From NCBI RefSeq assembly GCF_000146505.1, contig NC_017448.1, forward strand, positions 930,001 to 962,000: 32,000 nucleotides of DNA. Direction: 5' to 3'. A program made the position numbers and the translations under genes. Origin of the DNA: Fibrobacter succinogenes subsp. succinogenes S85 (lineage in GTDB: Bacteria > Fibrobacterota > Fibrobacteria > Fibrobacterales > Fibrobacteraceae). A model generated the notes under the pieces. That model searched no databases, was not told the DNA's origin, and saw nothing but the letters and a program-made list of their open reading frames with translations. Of this stretch, positions 5,133-27,971 are shown piece after piece (the stretch's first letter is position 1; each line of letters opens with the position of its first letter).

Positions 5133-5765
5133 ATGAACAAGGCCACGAAAATCAAATTCATTAGCGATAAGCTAGACGAACTATACCCTAGTCCACCCAT
5201 CCCGCTAGATTTTACAAGCCCATTCACGCTCCTCGTGGCCGTTGTTTTAAGCGCTCAATGTACAGACATTCGCGTGAACCAGGTGACAGCAGTCCTCTTC
5301 AAGGAAGCGAACACCCCCGCCAAGATGATCAAGCTCGGCGTCGACCGCATTGCCGAAATCATCAAGCCCTGCGGTTTCTTTAACACCAAAAGCGTGAACA
5401 TTTTCAAGCTCTCGCAAGCACTCGTCGAAAAGTTCAAAGGCGAAGTTCCACACACGTTCGAGGAACTCGAAAGCCTCCCTGGAGTCGGACATAAGACGGC
5501 AAGCGTCATCATGAGCCACATCTTTAAACTCCCTGCATTCCCGGTCGATACGCACATTCATCGACTCGCCGAACGCTGGGGCTTGAGCGACGGTTCAAGC
5601 GTTGAAAAGACCGAAGCGGATTTAAAAAAAGCTTTTCCCAAAGAAGAATGGGAAAAGCGTCATTTGCAAATCATTTATTTTGGGCGCAACTACTGTAAAG
5701 CGCGCGGGCATAAAGATGAAGAATGCCCAATTTGCAGCACAATAAGACGAAAGACGAGAGACTAG
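5133..5765 (+). CDS. nth: Endonuclease III (DNA-(apurinic or apyrimidinic site) lyase)
   Basis: It starts at the in-frame ATG at 5133 (MNKATKIKFISDKLDELYP...). It has FTLLVAVVLSAQCTD, the HhH-GPD motif LPGVGHKTASVIM, VDTHIHR, and a Cys-rich C-terminus. The track's start at 4983 would overlap cysE. Confidence 0.9.
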   Translation: MNKATKIKFISDKLDELYPSPPIPLDFTSPFTLLVAVVLSAQCTDIRVNQVTAVLFKEANTPAKMIKLGVDRIAEIIKPCGFFNTKSVNIFKLSQALVEKFKGEVPHTFEELESLPGVGHKTASVIMSHIFKLPAFPVDTHIHRLAERWGLSDGSSVEKTEADLKKAFPKEEWEKRHLQIIYFGRNYCKARGHKDEECPICSTIRRKTRD

Positions 5766-5780
5766 AGACGAAAGAATAGA
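5746..5780 (+). repeat. Heptanucleotide tandem array GACGAAA GACGAGA GACTAGA GACGAAA GAATAGA
   Basis: There are five units with an exact 7-nt period. The nth stop codon TAG (5763-5765) lies inside unit 3. The same word family occurs at 9791-9835. Confidence 0.8.
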
Positions 5781-8004: not shown

Positions 8005-8083
8005 AAGTGGTTAGTGATTAGGAATGTAATAGAAATGTTCTAATTACAATTCCTTCCTACCGCCTACTGTCTACTTCCTACTA
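8005..8083. repeat. Composite heptad-repeat block immediately downstream of the glnS stop
   Basis: On the + strand, CTACCGC CTACTGT CTACTTC CTA CTA spans 8057-8083, which reads as TAG every 7 nt on the glnS-sense strand. GTGGTTA GTGATTA spans 8007-8020. Both word families recur at 12676-12773. Confidence 0.75.
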
Positions 8084-8088
8084 TTTAA

Positions 8089-9756
8089 TTACTTTGTCGG
8101 GTTGAAAGAATCCTTCAAGCCAACAGTTCTGTTGAACACGAGGTGACCCGGCTTGGAGTCTTCGCTATCAAGGCAGAAGTAGCCCTGACGCATGAACTGG
8201 AAGCGGTCTTCGAGCTTCGCGTCGGCGAGTGCGGGTTCCACCTTGGCCTGCTTAATAACCATGGAGTTCGGGTTCAGGTAATCGTGCCAGTCTTCGCCTT
8301 CCGGGACCTGAGCAGGATCTTCGAGCGTGAACAAGTTATCAATGAGGCGCACTTCGGCATCCACAGCGTGTGCGGCAGAAACCCAGTGGATCGTGCCCTT
8401 GACCTTGCGGCCATCCGGAGATTCGCCACCCTTGCTAAGCGGGTCGTAGACGCAGTGAATGACCTTGACCTTGCCGTCATCATCCTTTTCAACGCTCTTG
8501 CAAGTGACAAAGTAAGCACCCTTGAGACGGACTTCGCCTTCCGGCTTCAAGCGGAAGTACTTCTTCGGCGGTTCTTCCATGAAGTCGTCTGCTTCGATGT
8601 AGAGTTCACCGCTGAACGGCACCTTACGCGTACCAGCGTTCGGGTCGTTCGGGTTGTTCTCGACTTCGATCATTTCGACCTTGCCTGCTTCCCAGTTGTC
8701 AATCACGAGCTTGACCGGATCAATCACGGCCATCACGCGGTTAGCGGTCTGGTTCAATTCTTCACGGATGCAGAAGTAAAGGAGGTTCACATCGACCATG
8801 GAGTCGGCCTTGGAAACACCGATGCGGCTGCAGAACTCGCGAATGGAGCTCGGGGTAAAGCCACGGCGGCGGAAACCGCAAACAGTCGGCATACGCGGGT
8901 CGTTCCAGCCAAGCACAGCCTTTGTCTGCACAAGTTCGAGGAGTTTGCGCTTACTCATCATCGTGTACGTGAGGTTCAAGCGGGCAAATTCAATCTGCTG
9001 CGGACGGTTCTGCAAACCAAGTTCAATGAGGAACCAGTCATAAAGCGGACGGTGGGCTTCGAACTCGAGCGTGCAGATGGAGTGCGTGATGCCTTCGATC
9101 CAGTCGCTAATCGGGTGGGCAAAGTCGTACATCGGGTAGATGCACCACTTGTCGCCAGTGCGATGGTGCGTGCAATGCTTGATGCGGTAGATGACCGGAT
9201 CGCGCATGTTCATGTTCGGGCTTGCGAGGTCGACCTTGGCACGGAGGCACTTTTCACCATCGGCGTACTTGCCGTCGCGCATTTCGTGGAAGAGCTTCAT
9301 GTTCTCTTCGACGCTGCGGTCGCGATAGGGGCTCGGGCGGGAGGGCTTGCCGGCATCGTTGCCGCGATATTCCTGCATTTCGTCGCGAGTCAAATCTTCG
9401 ACGTATGCCTTGCCCATTTCAATCATCTTTTCGGCAAAGGCGTAAATCTGGTCGTAGTAGTCGCTTGCGAAAAATTCTTCTTTCCATTCAAAGCCGAGCC
9501 ACTTCACGTCTTCGCGGATGGAATCGACGTATTCCACATCTTCCTTGGTCGGGTTCGTGTCGTCGAAGCGGAGGTTCGTAAAGCCGCCGAACTTTTTGGC
9601 GGTGCCGAAGTTCAAGCAGATGGACTTGGCATGGCCAATGTGAATATAGCCGTTCGGTTCGGGCGGGAAACGCGTCAGCACGTGATCGCGCTTGCCGGTC
9701 TGGAGGTCATTAACTATAATGTCCTGAATAAAATTCGAAGATTCGGGGATTTCCAT
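8089..9756 (-). CDS. glnS: Glutamine--tRNA ligase
   Basis: 555 aa. It has the class I HIGH motif ([17 protein letters not shown]), a KMSKS-like motif (VMSKRKL region: [10 protein letters not shown]), and full-length GlnRS-like sequence. Confidence 0.95.
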
Positions 9757-9790
9757 AACAGGGTCCTTTTAAAATTTTACGAGGGAAATT

Positions 9791-9835
9791 TAGAAAATAG
9801 ACGAGAGACTTGAGACTAGAGACGAGAGGAAATAG
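9791..9835 (+). repeat. Heptanucleotide tandem array TAGAAAA TAGACGA GAGACTT GAGACTA GAGACGA GAGGAAA TAG
   Basis: About 6.4 units with an exact 7-nt period, lying in the divergent glnS/eamA-like intergenic region. It shares GACGAGAGACT...AGAGACGA with 5746-5780. Confidence 0.8.
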
Positions 9836-12355: not shown

Positions 12356-12529
12356 TTACTTTTCCTCTGATTTTAAGGATTCAAGCGGATTTTTAATTCC
12401 TGCATTTTCCAATTTTTGCAAAACTTCAATAGCGTAATCAATCGCATCCAAGGAATGCGAACTCGCATACATCCTCAGGTCAGAAAGCGCATAGATCGCC
12501 CTTTGGTTGTTCATCTCTTTTTCCGACAT
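12356..12529 (-). CDS. Small hypothetical protein (57 aa) 3 nt upstream of the NhaC-family gene
   Basis: The product is MSEKEMNNQRAIYALSDLRMYASSHSLDAIDYAIEVLQKLENAGIKNPLESLKSEEK. An AAGGAGAG SD sits 5 nt upstream of the ATG (complement 12527-12529). The track's 80-aa version begins at an upstream alternative start. Confidence 0.45.
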   Translation of the reverse strand: MSEKEMNNQRAIYALSDLRMYASSHSLDAIDYAIEVLQKLENAGIKNPLESLKSEEK

Positions 12530-12675
12530 AATCTCTCCTTTGCATTTTTCAAAAAAATACCTAAAAAATCTAATTATTGCACGAAAATAAAATTGCATTT
12601 TTCGTCAAAAAAAAGTCTCTAACTACAACAAGACCCTGTAAGGCTCCTCCTAATGGAGGATGACAGCTTTCCTCC

Positions 12676-12773
12676 CTAACCACTAGCCACTAACCACTTC
12701 CTACTGCCATCCTTCCTACCGTCTACCGCCTACTCCCCCTAACCACTAATCACTAACCACTACCCACTATTTT
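12676..12773. repeat. Three adjacent heptad arrays, nearly G-free on the + strand
   Basis: The arrays are CTAACCA CTAGCCA CTAACCA (12676-12696), CTACCGT CTACCGC CTACTCC (12716-12736), and CTAACCA CTAATCA CTAACCA CTACCCA CTATTTT (12739-12773). Only 4 G occur in 12671-12773. Confidence 0.85.
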
Positions 12774-12779
12774 ATTATC

Positions 12780-12787
12780 TATATTAT

Positions 12788-12788
<1 letters not shown>
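12780..12788 (+). promoter_or_regulatory. TATATTATA -10-like box directly upstream of the TPP riboswitch
   Basis: Its position a few nt before the first conserved riboswitch nucleotides (CTGGGGTGC at 12790) fits a transcription start at the aptamer 5' end. Confidence 0.4.
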
Positions 12789-14484
<1,696 letters not shown>

Positions 14485-14525: not shown

Positions 14526-16307
14526 ATGGAAAACGGAAAGAAAATTCTTAACAACTTCGTAAAGAGCAAATTCGCCGACCAGAATGAACTAAAGAAGGCT
14601 TTGTTCCAAGCCGGCGTTGCCGCGCTTGACGAAGGCTGGACGTTCATGGATGCCACATTCCAGCTCGGCGGCAAGGCTCGCGACGAGGGGCTCTCGGCAG
14701 ACGATGTCGAGAAGATTTTGCGCAACGCCTTCTCCGAAGAAAAGCGCCGTACCGAACGCGAAGCCGAACAAAAGGCAGCCGCACAAGCCGCTCAAGCAGC
14801 AGCGCAACCCGCACAAGCTCCACAGGCTCAAGCCGCCCAAGCCCAGCCGGGCATGGCTTCAGGCTATGCCGCCATGGGCCCAACCGTCATCTCGCCCATT
14901 TCAGCAACGATGATGCAGCAGATGATTGCGCTCGGTCTCGACAACCAGTCTCTTGAGCTGTTGCAGAACTTCAAGATTGACCCCGAAGCGCTCTCGATTC
15001 CATGGCCCGCCCCTGACTGGCGCAAAGACTTTGCAAAGCTCTTGGCGGCAACGTTCAAGCCCGACGAAACCGTTGAATTCAAGATTTCGAACACACCATC
15101 CGGTTCTCGCGAAATCGTCTCGAAGATTATCGCGCAAGACGAAGCGCTCAAGAAAATCATGAAGCAGCTCGACGGTCCGGACGGAGCGCTCCTCACGATT
15201 AATGCAGTGAAAGGCGGCGCCGACGCCACCGACGAAAGCTGGCATTACCGTTACGTTGTCGTAGACAACCCGAAGATGACGCTTGCGAAGCAGCTCGCTT
15301 ACTACAAGGCATTGAACCTCCCCTGCGCCGCCCTTGTGAACACGGGCGCAAACTCCGTGCAGGCCTGGATCAAGATTGAAGCGCATGACCAGGAAGAATA
15401 CAAGGAACGCGTAGACTTCCTTTTCCAGACGCTTGAATCGCAAGGCTTTAAAGTCGATGACGGCAACCGCAACCCAAACCAGATGGTCCGCATGCCAGGC
15501 GTGCTCCGCAACGGCAAGCAGCAGTATCTCATCGCATTGGAACAAGGCGCCAAGAATTTCACGGAATGGCGCGAATGGGCGGAATACTCGCTCGATGGAA
15601 AGCCGCTCGTAGAACTTGCAAGCGATAGCGAAGAAGCTCCGAAAAAAGACGTTACCATTATCGAGAACGTACTCCGCGCTGGTGAATTTTTCTTGTTCAC
15701 AGCCCCGCCGAAAAGCGGAAAGTCGCTTGCGCTCATGGACATGGCGCTTTCCATTTGCCACGGCGAAGACTGGCTCGGCAACACAACAAATGCAAACGAC
15801 GTTCTGTACATCAACTTGGAACTCACCAAGTCCGTGTTCTTGAACCGTCTCTTTTTACTTGGCGAAAAGCGTAACCTCCAGCCGAACACGCCCAAATTCG
15901 GTTTCTTGAATCTCCGCGGCACAGCGCTTACACCGCTTGAAATCGCACAGCTCATCGCAAAGCGCATTCAAGGCGCCAAGAAGCTTGAAAATCACGATTA
16001 CAAGGTCGTCGTGATTGACCCGATATCTGCCGTTTTGCACAACCCGAAGTCTTCAAGACTCAGCGGCTCCCCGCACCAGATTCTGATGCAAATGGTCGAT
16101 TCGATTATCGCCCTCACAGGTTGCGCCGTCGTGACTTCCACGAACATAGGCGAATACCCCTACCTCGAATCCCGCGCCGACAGCGTCATTTCGCTCACGC
16201 CGGTTGAAGGTAGCCTGAACACGTACCAGATTAAAGGCTCGTTCCGCGAATTCCCGAAGACTCTCGCCCGCGAATGCTCCTGGATTTATCCTAGATTTAT
16301 AGTTTAA
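14526..16307 (+). CDS. Primase-helicase-like fusion: RepB-prime/AEP-like primase core plus a RecA-type (AAA_25/RepA-like) ATPase
   Basis: The ATG at 14526 follows a GGAGG SD (14516-14520). The primase-like core spans aa ~222-335 (INAVKGG...YRYVVVDNP...LVNTGANSVQAWIKI...DDGNRNPNQMVRMPGVLRNGKQQ). Walker A is APPKSGKS (15702-15725) and Walker B is KVVVIDP (16002-16022). An Ala/Gln linker lies near 14770-14850. Confidence 0.65.
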   Translation: MENGKKILNNFVKSKFADQNELKKALFQAGVAALDEGWTFMDATFQLGGKARDEGLSADDVEKILRNAFSEEKRRTEREAEQKAAAQAAQAAAQPAQAPQAQAAQAQPGMASGYAAMGPTVISPISATMMQQMIALGLDNQSLELLQNFKIDPEALSIPWPAPDWRKDFAKLLAATFKPDETVEFKISNTPSGSREIVSKIIAQDEALKKIMKQLDGPDGALLTINAVKGGADATDESWHYRYVVVDNPKMTLAKQLAYYKALNLPCAALVNTGANSVQAWIKIEAHDQEEYKERVDFLFQTLESQGFKVDDGNRNPNQMVRMPGVLRNGKQQYLIALEQGAKNFTEWREWAEYSLDGKPLVELASDSEEAPKKDVTIIENVLRAGEFFLFTAPPKSGKSLALMDMALSICHGEDWLGNTTNANDVLYINLELTKSVFLNRLFLLGEKRNLQPNTPKFGFLNLRGTALTPLEIAQLIAKRIQGAKKLENHDYKVVVIDPISAVLHNPKSSRLSGSPHQILMQMVDSIIALTGCAVVTSTNIGEYPYLESRADSVISLTPVEGSLNTYQIKGSFREFPKTLARECSWIYPRFIV

Positions 16308-26273: not shown

Positions 26274-27071
26274 GTGGGAAAATTACGCTTTGTTTTGCCT
26301 AATACTTTCACAAGCCTGAACTTTTTGCTTGGCGTGTTCTCCATTTGCTGGACAACCGGAGCATTTGGTTCGTTTAGTACGGCAGACCAAATCCGCATGG
26401 GTGCCTATTTCGTCATGTTGTGCGCCCTTTTTGATAAGCTTGATGGCTTTGCCGCCCGCCTCGTGAACGCCAGTTCCGAATTCGGCGCTCAGTTCGATAG
26501 CCTTGCCGACTTGGTGGCTTTCGGTCTCGCCCCTGCATTCTGCGTTTTCTTCACCTACAAGATTTACGCACCGGAATGGTTCCAGAACCATGGGCTCCTG
26601 ATGACGGTTGCACTTGCCGTTTACGTGCTCTGTGCCGCCATGCGCCTCGCCAAGTACAATGCTTGCGATTCTGACACTTACCACCACCATTTCTCCGGCC
26701 TCCCTTCCACCTTTGCGGGCATGGTCAATGCAACACTCATCGTGTTCCTCATGACCAAGGGCGTTTTCGCAGACTCCAGCACGTTCCTCTTCTGGCTCCC
26801 GATTATCGTGTTTGTCATTACAGGATTCTTGATGGTAAGCCCGTTGTTCCTCCCGAAACTCCAGCCGCGCAAGAACAAGGCTTTCAACATTTTCCAGATC
26901 GTGCTGATCCTGCTCACCTACGTTGCAGGCATCCTCTTCTACAACCCGAAGGTACCGTTCATTCTTGAATACCTGCTCATTCTCGGTTCAAGCTACATGG
27001 TGATTGGTTTTGCAGTAGGCCTCATCTACCGCAAGCAGATTATCAAAGAAGCTAAAGCAGCCAAAAAGTAG
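26274..27071 (+). CDS. pssA: CDP-diacylglycerol--serine O-phosphatidyltransferase (CDP-alcohol phosphatidyltransferase family)
   Basis: A GTG start follows an AAGGAG SD. It has the motif DKLDGFAARLVNASSEFGAQFDSLADLVAFGLAP (D-G-x2-A-R-x8-G-x3-D-x3-D) and multiple TM helices. Confidence 0.85.
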   Translation: MGKLRFVLPNTFTSLNFLLGVFSICWTTGAFGSFSTADQIRMGAYFVMLCALFDKLDGFAARLVNASSEFGAQFDSLADLVAFGLAPAFCVFFTYKIYAPEWFQNHGLLMTVALAVYVLCAAMRLAKYNACDSDTYHHHFSGLPSTFAGMVNATLIVFLMTKGVFADSSTFLFWLPIIVFVITGFLMVSPLFLPKLQPRKNKAFNIFQIVLILLTYVAGILFYNPKVPFILEYLLILGSSYMVIGFAVGLIYRKQIIKEAKAAKK

Positions 27072-27103
27072 GAAGTAGACGGTAGACAGTAGACAGTGGA
27101 TAG
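27069..27103 (+). repeat. Heptad array TAGGAAG TAGACGG TAGACAG TAGACAG TGGA TAG starting at the pssA stop codon
   Basis: TAG occurs at 27069 (the real stop), 27076, 27083 and 27090, with an exact 7-nt period. A further TAG is at 27101. Confidence 0.85.
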
Positions 27104-27126
27104 CCGTCAGTCGCTAATTTGAAGTT

Positions 27127-27155
27127 ATGCCCGCTGCAAGCGGGCATTTCTTTTT
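27127..27155 (+). terminator. Rho-independent terminator after pssA
   Basis: A perfect hairpin ATGCCCGC-TGCA-AGCGGGCAT (27127-27147) is followed by TTCTTTTT. Confidence 0.75.
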
Positions 27156-27175
27156 ATGGAGATTATTGGCGCGTT

Positions 27176-27874
27176 CTAGCGCGACACAAAGCGTTCCAAG
27201 AATTCCGCGAACGCACGACCATAGCGGTCAAACAAATGTTCTAGCGACATGCGCGGGAGTTCAAGCGTCACGCATTCCAAGTTACGTTCACCACACCACG
27301 TCCCGAAGCTCCCCGGCGTTTTATACCCAATATCCGGCAACCAAGGCAAGTTGAACGCATTCATCACGCCCTCAACAAGCGATGTTTTTTGCGGGGCATC
27401 GACGCATGCTATCGGGGCATGCATCGCAAGCACGCTCGCAGGCTTCAGCTTTTCAATTAACGCGACAAGCGCTTGCGTTTCCGGTTCGCTCCCTGCAAAT
27501 GCTCCCGGCAATAAAAGCGTATCGCGAGGCGCTTCAAGAATTGAGCGTGAACCGACCTTTTCCGTTGAGAAGTTCTGCGTCTTGAAATTGCGGTTCAAGT
27601 CCACGCCGTTCGCGTTTCCGCGCGTTCCAAGAGCAGCTCCGTCCGGATTGGCGCACAGAATAAAAGCAATAGAATCAAAAGGCTCGTCAAAAGCACGAAG
27701 CACACGGCTCAAGAGGAACGTCGTCTCCGGCTCTTCGCCGTGAATCCCAGCCATTACAAGCAACTTGCATTCGCTCTTGCACGGGTAGTACAGCAGTGGA
27801 GCGCCCAGCACAGAGCGTCCATATTCAAGAGAAGGCAACCGGATAATACCGCGGGATTCGGGAGAATAGTTCAT
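27176..27874 (-). CDS. M14-family murein peptide amidase (MpaA-like gamma-D-Glu-Dap amidase)
   Basis: 232 aa. It has the zinc motif GIHGEEPET, CANPDG, RGNANGVDLNRNF, and the third ligand region LAMHAP. Confidence 0.75.
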   Translation of the reverse strand: MNYSPESRGIIRLPSLEYGRSVLGAPLLYYPCKSECKLLVMAGIHGEEPETTFLLSRVLRAFDEPFDSIAFILCANPDGAALGTRGNANGVDLNRNFKTQNFSTEKVGSRSILEAPRDTLLLPGAFAGSEPETQALVALIEKLKPASVLAMHAPIACVDAPQKTSLVEGVMNAFNLPWLPDIGYKTPGSFGTWCGERNLECVTLELPRMSLEHLFDRYGRAFAEFLERFVSR

Positions 27875-27971
27875 AGTAGATAGTTGGCAGAACTTAGTTG
27901 GCAGAGCTTAGAGAGAAGAGTTATGTTCTAAGATCTAAGTTCTAAGAGCGAAGCGAGCTAAGTTCTAAATA
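27874..27971. repeat. Stop-rich repeat block: a 14-mer x2 (TAGTTGGCAGAACT / TAGTTGGCAGAGCT) plus CTAAG-type heptads
   Basis: The 14-mers lie at 27881-27908. TTCTAAG ATCTAAG TTCTAAG lies at 27927-27947, with further units at 27958 and 27965. The stop of the M15 gene (complement of 27965-27967) is one unit of the array. Confidence 0.8.

Follow-up and report, generated by a model that had tools for sequence, protein, structure and literature searches.

A heptanucleotide array begins at the stop codon of a pssA-like gene

The 32,000-nucleotide stretch of Fibrobacter succinogenes S85 DNA analysed here (CP001792.1, referred to as the window) contains a pssA-like open reading frame (ORF) whose stop codon is at the same time the first triplet of a tandem array of 7-nt units (Table 1). 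Scored against the TIGR00473 pssA model, this ORF reached 89.6 bits, under the model cut-off of 107. The array reads TAGGAAG (27069-75), TAGACGG (27076-82), TAGACAG (27083-89), TAGACAG (27090-96) and TGGATAG (27097-103), with TAG triplets at 27069, 27076, 27083, 27090 and 27101, and was described by Tandem Repeats Finder (TRF) as period 7 with 3.4 copies and 88% matches. With TAG offsets of 0, 7 and 14, a stretch of 17 nt contains a stop codon in each of frames 0, 1 and 2. Further downstream, a terminator scan revealed a hairpin at 27127-27147 followed by TTCTTTTTAT, and the four UAG triplets at a 7-nt period lie 24 nt upstream of the stem of this terminator. An initial annotation of this DNA had pointed out the array starting at the stop codon, the stops in all three frames within 17 nt and the perfect terminator hairpin, and all three are borne out by the sequence and the ORF end at 27071, by the TAG offsets and by the terminator scan, respectively.

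The pattern TAG-N4-TAG-N4-TAG-N4-TAG occurs 4 times in the window versus 0.00 times expected from 100 shuffles, and GTAGRNNGTAGR occurs 8 times versus 0.04, which excludes a chance origin of the TAG period-7 pattern. The same GTAGRNN word family had been noted after glnS and around 12711-12738, and these recurrences are exact: the glnS-sense strand of 8052-8083 reads TAGTAGGAAGTAGACAGTAGGCGGTAGGAAGG, and the reverse complement of 12711-12738 reads GGGGAGTAGGCGGTAGACGGTAGGAAGG. At glnS, the proposed placement on the sense strand behind the gene holds; this array starts 9-12 nt after a TAA stop (8089-8091) and is out of register with it.

Period-7 arrays are concentrated in intergenic DNA

Tandem arrays were detected by TRF and by lag autocorrelation at periods 4-12. 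Strong local autocorrelation appeared in the window only at period 7, at 5742-5775, 9799-9828, 12735-12771 and 27066-27104, all four sites being intergenic or at a gene end, and TRF added period-7/14 arrays at 8056-8082, 12676-12733, 27881-27911 and 27916-27953. In a strict lag-7 test, 4 of the 18 intergenic regions of the window were positive and length-matched coding controls never passed; six regions of the window carry arrays once the TRF arrays at the 3′ ends of nth and glnS are added. GTAGRNN arrays occupy three of the sites in the window, beside arrays of the AGACGAR, TTAGTGG, TTAGAAC and 14-mer families.

Together with 64 further loci (referred to by L-numbers; all PssA relatives retrieved were from Fibrobacter), the window forms a Fibrobacter sample of 1.24 Mb, of which 72 kb (5.8%) is intergenic. 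Within this sample TRF reported 70 intergenic versus 13 coding arrays of period 7 and 22 versus 7 of period 14, other periods being mostly coding, and the density of period-7 arrays was ~90-fold higher in intergenic than in coding DNA. The intergenic enrichment for which the initial annotation had proposed a genome-wide scan is thus present, and specific to period 7, over these 1.24 Mb. The unit families in the Fibrobacter loci include GTGAGTT, GTGAGGT, TAGGGGC, TTAGTGG, TTAGGAA, GATTTCG, AGACGAA, TTAGAAC, AGTTATG and GTAGACA, among others. On the stop side, arrays accompany ~4% of the genes in the sampled loci and comprise 2-6 copies, with no preference for exactly three or for four.

Arrays gain, lose and exchange whole units

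In the alignment of the pssA 3′ region, gaps were exactly 7 nt (L061, L013 and L014) or 14 nt (L005), with the terminator conserved alongside: relative to S85, L061 lacks one TAGACAG unit and L005 lacks two, while in L013 and L014 the array runs on with TGGTTAG-type units. Other relatives carry other units at this site, namely TGGTTAG x5 followed by TCATTGG x4 in L012, TTAGGAA in L010 and AGACGAA in L009. No array follows pssA in the closest relative (L001, 96% PssA identity) or in any species with a PssA identity of 74% or less. In L066, an S85-like strain with an identical PssA protein and 28 mismatches over the 3000 nt upstream of pssA, TGGATAA replaces one TAGACAG of the pssA array, and the spacer between mpaA and a VanY-like gene has one 14-nt unit fewer. 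Moreover, in L006, L007 and L012 an array (AGTAAGC AGTAAGC AGTAGGC ...) intrudes into the last three pssA codons. Shortened or unit-swapped pssA arrays leave the ORF end and the terminator intact, and the terminator is kept in relatives while the array on its 5′ side varies. A comparison of unit number between strains, as first suggested in the initial annotation, therefore reveals whole-unit variation of 7 or 14 nt both at pssA and in the mpaA-VanY spacer.

Heptamer arrays are present in the operon-internal mpaA-VanY spacer (27875-27964 of the window; L002-L061) of almost all Fibrobacter species examined. Its units include GTGAGTT, GTGAGGT, AGTTATG, GGGTGTG, TAGTTGGCAGAACT, CCCCTAG and TTCTAAG, in 2-18 copies and in arrays of up to 127 nt, those of 12-18 copies lying directly upstream of mpaA orthologues. 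The spacer could be either a persistent hot spot or a site where selection maintains an array.

Besides the heptamers, intergenic DNA contains another small element, a GTCATCC...GGAT(C) hairpin, which is present at 12640-12668 of the window (minus strand GCTGTCATCCTCCATTAGGAGGAGCC) and downstream of pssA in L001-L004, L006, L007 and L011, where it replaces or joins the heptamer array before the terminator. Of the GTCATCC occurrences, 43 are intergenic and 150 coding, with intergenic DNA making up 5.8% of the sample, and the element may represent a Fibrobacter family resembling repetitive extragenic palindromic (REP) sequences or miniature inverted-repeat transposable elements.

Unit number that varies within and between species, and the 12-18 start-side copies directly upstream of mpaA orthologues, would be in line with a contingency (phase-variation) locus, in which unit number switches a neighbouring gene. 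However, the neighbours of the arrays are housekeeping genes (glnS, nth, pssA and thiC), and on the same ground phase variation was rejected by Rehm et al. (PMC4692102). Because the pssA array starts at the stop codon, 7-nt insertions or deletions spare both the ORF and the promoter, and the repeat lies outside the ORF interior or promoter spacer that houses a phase-variable simple sequence repeat. We therefore attach very little probability to such switching.

The G-rich strand leaves the neighbouring gene

Among Fibrobacter arrays at most 20 nt from a gene, the strand leaving the nearest gene was the G-rich one in 45 of 50. Collapsed by orthologous boundary, 8/8 were polar at stop codons and, with one truncation-artefact family removed, 4/5 at start codons; this 'C-rich away' start-side family proved to be an artefact of arrays at the cut end of a locus, of which the true left-hand neighbour is unseen. 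Species differ in the unit at one boundary yet share its polarity. Upstream of start codons the G-rich strand is antisense, and ATG, GTG and TTG are lacking from the sense strand of the gene in 25/26 arrays, versus 10/26 on the antisense strand.

A metagenome set was selected by the pattern GTAGACRGTAGACRGTAG (GTAGACR arrays) and comprised at least 120 contigs with a GC content of 31-70%, this range being its sole indicator of breadth; the loci with such arrays include L069-L148, and all counts are among the matches listed. After a stop codon, the TAG strand was sense in 49 cases versus antisense in 4 (38 versus 3 for ORFs of at least 200 aa), and in 27 cases the stop codon of the ORF was a TAG of the array. 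Start-side polarity was weakly resolved (16 versus 9), with 15 more cases ambiguous in that the longest ORF traverses the stop-free C-rich strand. The sense-strand bias after stop codons that had been predicted is thus found both at the Fibrobacter boundaries (8/8) and in the metagenome set (49 versus 4).

This bias and the TAG triplets in frames 0, 1 and 2 might in turn indicate a selected all-frame stop pad, catching read-through or frameshifted ribosomes at the end of pssA, and all-frame stops within 30 nt were indeed present in 16/34 genes with a stop-side array versus 26/893 others. However, such arrays are found at ~4% of genes only, and at the pssA site they are missing in L001 and the distant species. 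The same unit families also occur in divergent promoter regions (9799-9828 and 12676-12769) and run antisense upstream of starts. Moreover, stop-less units (GATTTCG) are equally polar, G>C skew is a better predictor than stop content, and copy number ranges over 2-6 rather than favouring three. A dedicated stop pad, one of the roles offered in the initial annotation, is hence not borne out for an array that appears dispensable, and we regard it as quite improbable.

Inverted partners and predicted structures

A same-unit inverted partner within 150 nt was found downstream of 54 of the 116 metagenome GTAGACR arrays versus upstream of 3, and in the Fibrobacter loci 10 partners lay downstream versus 2 upstream, with no partner for 63/76 arrays (k=8). 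The metagenome partners are spaced 30-120 nt apart, and the order is nearly always G-rich array first and C-rich array second. In the window, the glnS 3′ region is predicted to fold into a long array-on-array hairpin, formed by the GTAGRNN units and a C-rich stretch, followed by a terminator-like stem (z-score -3.5). Likewise, in the VanY-mpaA spacer a stem is predicted between the VanY-like 3′ array and the complementary 14-mer array (z-score -2.3).

These pairs suggest that a G-rich array could pair with a downstream C-rich inverted array into a functional RNA or DNA structure, comparable to REP elements in Escherichia coli, whose stem would stabilise the mRNA on its 5′ side, assist or insulate termination, or tune relative expression within operons. 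Hairpins of short tandemly repeated repetitive (STRR) sequences lie between cyanobacterial genes and have been proposed to increase transcript stability or to couple translation (PMC2670836), and the persistence of arrays at the mpaA-VanY spacer in most species would also be consistent with a structural role. For the pssA array, however, the fold of the 3′ region revealed no partner array and is predicted to contain just a 5-bp GACGG/CCGUC pairing, most of the folding energy coming from the separate terminator. Most Fibrobacter arrays are partnerless as well, the pssA array differs in unit and length between relatives and is missing in the closest one, and covariation cannot be scored on such repeats. 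A structural hairpin of the STRR or REP type is in our view the main rival explanation, albeit an unlikely one, with the stop pad, protein binding and phase variation as minor ones.

Two further structural candidates were rejected. Since no run of three or more G occurs in 27069-27103, a G-quadruplex at the pssA array is ruled out, and an 'array plus terminator' as a fixed module was dismissed because a terminator-like hairpin followed just 8 of 36 stop-side arrays in a crude scan.

In the hut operon of Bacillus subtilis, the protein HutP recognises UAG-N4-UAG-N4-UAG beside a terminator. The pssA array resembles this site in its UAG triplets at a 7-nt period beside an intrinsic terminator, and it might conceivably be bound by an oligomeric RNA- or DNA-binding protein reading one triplet per 7 nt. 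The four UAG-N4 repeats 24 nt upstream of the terminator and the recurrence of the GTAGACR unit across contigs of 31-70% GC would fit such a binding site, and MacGregor proposed binders for TAACTGA repeats, with S1, Csp and CsrA as candidates (PMC4679880). Unlike the HutP site, however, the Fibrobacter arrays are variable and appear dispensable, lie on either strand, and in other species consist of units without UAG; orthologous sites hold TGGTTAG, TCATTGG, TTAGGAA, AGACGAA, GTGAGTT and other units, and the array is unstable in its number of copies and may be lost. No candidate protein was identified, no search for HutP-like proteins having been made, and with a convergent gene after pssA, antitermination would yield only antisense RNA. 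We thus give protein binding scant credence.

The pssA array as a probable product of slippage filtered by selection

The pssA array is a heptanucleotide simple sequence repeat. Starting from the observed tandem structure, period-7 specificity, intergenic restriction, whole-unit variation and orientation bias, we favour with moderate confidence the explanation that it was generated by slippage, with its placement and orientation filtered by selection. A slippage-generated microsatellite was among the roles offered in the initial annotation, and the 7- and 14-nt gaps, the unit swap within the species and the absence of the array in the closest relative all lend support to it. Within the untranslated DNA from the pssA stop codon to the terminator, the array would be created and resized through slipped replication or through 7-nt units being exchanged unequally, and purifying selection at gene boundaries would set where arrays persist and in which orientation. 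Beside a stop codon, the G-rich and C-poor strand, which is therefore rich in TAG, TGA and TAA, would be tolerated as sense, and growth, shrinkage or intrusion of the array into the ORF would still end translation within three units. Beside a start codon, the G-poor strand without ATG, GTG or TTG would be tolerated as sense, and the start-side lack of these triplets on the sense strand fits a filter against spurious starts.

The array probably has no dedicated job at the pssA site, where, judging from its relatives, it appears to be dispensable. The all-frame stops would therefore be a by-product that renders the array innocuous at the 3′ end of a gene, and not its reason for existing.

Several points weigh against this explanation. 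Slippage is something we infer from how the arrays vary, the Fibrobacter loci cover the same orthologous neighbourhood around pssA and so provide only ~14 independent boundaries, and genes were called by a simple self-trained codon model with Pfam checks and long-ORF fill-in, with approximate starts. On the stop side, G>C skew separates the strands by 40 versus 4, whereas at least one stop triplet is present in just 37/45 versus 27/45, and the polarity also holds for units whose two strands both contain stops (CTAGGGG) or both lack them (GATTTCG), so that stop-triplet selection does not fully explain it. At the mpaA-VanY spacer, the retention of an array in nearly all species while its unit changes could mean selection for the array. 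Moreover, the excess of inverted partners (54 versus 3) calls for an additional process, which may be template switching or selection for pairing. Slippage with selective filtering hence leaves the cause of the polarity and of the G-rich-first partner excess unexplained.

Relation to known repeats

Many bacterial genomes contain an excess of heptameric repeats (Rehm 2015, PMC4692102), and heptanucleotides were the most abundant class of long simple sequence repeats (LSSRs) in Mrazek 2007 as summarised in PMC4679880. Polymerase slippage has been proposed for 7-nt units in work cited in PMC4692102 and PMC4679880. Although the initial annotation knew of no description of such arrays, the class and its polarity are described in PMC4692102, where the GGGAATC/GGGGAYT repeats of Xanthomonas and Nostoc vary in length between related species and have no known function, and the all-frame stops in PMC4679880, where forward copies of the TAACTGA repeats of Beggiatoaceae, cyanobacteria and Bacteroidetes give stops in all frames and overlap upstream stop codons. 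A literature search for Fibrobacter with heptanucleotide, heptamer or tandem repeats found no paper, and neither did one for TAGACAG or GTAGACA as a repeat unit.

The units of STRR1-3 are CCCCAGT, TTGGTCA and CAACAGT, and their hosts are heterocystous cyanobacteria. Like LSSRs and STRRs, the Fibrobacter arrays are head-to-tail 7-nt units in non-coding DNA, forming many dispersed arrays of several families that are variable between relatives, some with intergenic hairpins; the pssA array shares with them its tandem units, the intergenic excess of period 7, the dispersed arrays and the whole-unit variation. Unlike the cyanobacterial STRRs, they belong to the phylum Fibrobacterota, and the units TAGACAG and TAGGAAG at the pssA site are not classical STRR units, none of CCCCAGT, TTGGTCA and CAACAGT being present there. 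A single (TTGGTCA)3 run was seen in the Fibrobacter loci (L012, 10842-10862), and it matches the STRR2 unit of Calothrix.

As in the Xanthomonas and Nostoc repeats (PMC4692102), the G-rich strand is the coding strand after a stop and the non-coding strand before a start (45/50, 8/8 and 49 versus 4 in our samples), length and sequence vary, and there is no link to a gene-function class. Unlike those quadruplex repeats, the Fibrobacter arrays show no preference for four units and the pssA units are not of the G-quadruplex kind. No tandem GGGAATC or GGGGAYT repeats (at least 2 copies) were found in the window or the Fibrobacter loci. With a pssA array devoid of G-tracts and loci devoid of GGGNATC tandems, the polarity is therefore independent of quadruplex potential.

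The pssA array is also like the TAACTGA repeats (PMC4679880) in its 7-nt unit, its forward all-frame stops and its overlap with the upstream stop codon, but its units (TAGGAAG, TAGACGG, TAGACAG and TGGATAG) differ from theirs. The Beggiatoa TAACTGA repeats lie mostly directly upstream of starts, in forward orientation and with one dominant unit (PMC4679880), whereas Fibrobacter has many unit families, with the TAG strand typically sense after stops and antisense before starts. In the Fibrobacter sample, (TAACTRR)n arrays were seen only at L004 17170-17247 and L002 17212-17240, the 11-copy array including TAACTGA. Identical heptamers (TAACTGA and TTGGTCA) therefore recur across phyla.

The REP sequences and bacterial interspersed mosaic elements of enterobacteria are imperfect palindromes of ~35 nt that lie intergenically just past stop codons, often in operons, and can form stem-loops in transcripts. 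The Fibrobacter arrays resemble them as short intergenic repeats just after stops, with array-on-array stems predicted at glnS and VanY-mpaA, and differ from them in being tandem heptamers, with a pssA array that has no palindromic partner and is predicted to pair over 5 bp only.

More speculatively, heptamer arrays of different phyla might belong to a single class of oriented cis-elements. The G-rich strand would always point out of the ORF and a same-unit inverted partner would be frequent, a rule that would need no quadruplex and be explained only in part by start and stop triplets. We deem such a class a rather doubtful prospect; its polarity would be either generated or selected, and candidate causes are the hiding of C-rich RNA during transcription, a REP-like element that insulates or stabilises, or template switching that builds palindromic arrays.

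Other features of the window

The remaining arrays are listed in Table 1. The composite array at 12676..12769 is not at a gene 3′ end but sits where a small minus-strand ORF and the thiC leader diverge. In the nth 3′ array, the stop codon TAG of nth (5763-5765) falls within the AGACTAG unit, and the array codes for the last residues of Nth. The array at 9799..9831 is C-rich on the glnS sense strand and lies 42 nt upstream of the glnS start codon. The start codon of mpaA is at 27874 on the minus strand.

Table 1. Coordinates of the pssA locus and of the heptamer arrays in the window
Feature	Position	Strand	Description
pssA-like ORF	26274..27071	+	CDP-alcohol phosphatidyltransferase, 265 aa; TAG stop 27069-27071 is the first triplet of the array
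pssA heptanucleotide array	27069..27103	+	untranslated 3′ stretch, between stop codon and terminator
Intrinsic terminator	27127..27157	+	9-bp stem ATGCCCGCT/AGCGGGCAT, loop GCA, then T-run; hairpin 27127-27147
glnS 3′ array	8052..8083	-	TAGGAAG TAGACAG TAGGCGG TAGGAAG, glnS-sense, 9-12 nt past the glnS stop
C-rich partner of glnS array	8007..8026	+	GTGGTTAGTGATTAGGAATG; reads CCTAATCACTAACCAC in glnS-sense RNA
Composite array	12676..12769	-	TTAGTGG-type units around GTAGGCG GTAGACG GTAGGAA; G-rich on minus strand
nth 3′ array	5744..5780	+	AGACGAA AGACGAG AGACTAG AGACGAA AGAATAG
glnS/EamA-transporter array	9799..9831	+	AGACGAG AGACTTG AGACTAG AGACGAG, divergent promoter region
mpaA 14-mer array	27881..27911	+	14-nt (2 x 7) unit TAGTTGGCAGAACT, 2.2 copies, directly upstream of mpaA start
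VanY-like 3′ array	27916..27967	-	TTAGAAC-type, sense strand; first unit is the TAG stop 27965-27967

The heptamer arrays at 12676-12769 adjoin the 5′ side of an element resembling a thiamine pyrophosphate (TPP) riboswitch (12781-12878, plus strand), which lies directly upstream of thiC (12868-14484). This element scored 33.8 bits against RF00059 (gathering score 54.3; E = 4e-5 in a 341-nt search) and was missed by the scan of the window at gathering level; that scan of the whole window against Rfam at the gathering threshold gave 0 matches, none at any array, and ARAGORN found no tRNA in the window. A small ORF of at most 80 aa (12356-12598, minus strand; 57 aa from the ATG at 12530) lies upstream of a gene of the Na+/H+ antiporter family and had no NCBIfam match, and its status as a real gene is uncertain.

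Opposite glnS (8089-9756, minus strand), a 556-aa ORF on the plus strand (8143-9813) runs antisense over nearly its full length; the codon model picked glnS (score 200), and the 556-aa ORF is probably a shadow ORF. Within the ORF at 14526-16307, an in-frame coding repeat of period 9/21 (GCAGCAGCACAACCCGCACAA, ~2-7 copies; 14775-14843, plus strand) encodes an Ala/Gln/Pro-rich low-complexity stretch and has no relation to the heptamer arrays.

Implications

With these arrays, the phylum Fibrobacterota, represented by a complete genome of a cultivable organism, joins the bacteria rich in intergenic heptanucleotide repeats. The rule that the G-rich strand leaves the ORF holds here for units unable to form G-quadruplexes, which weakens the quadruplex explanation for Xanthomonas and Nostoc. 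The arrays also call for caution in deriving a function from the all-frame stop property. In practical terms, they are hypervariable markers for Fibrobacter strain typing and give rise to errors in assembly and annotation, among them altered C-termini where an array intrudes on an ORF. If heptamer arrays do form one class across phyla, S85, being cultivable and rich in unit families, could serve to test what STRR-type repeats do, a question that is decades old.

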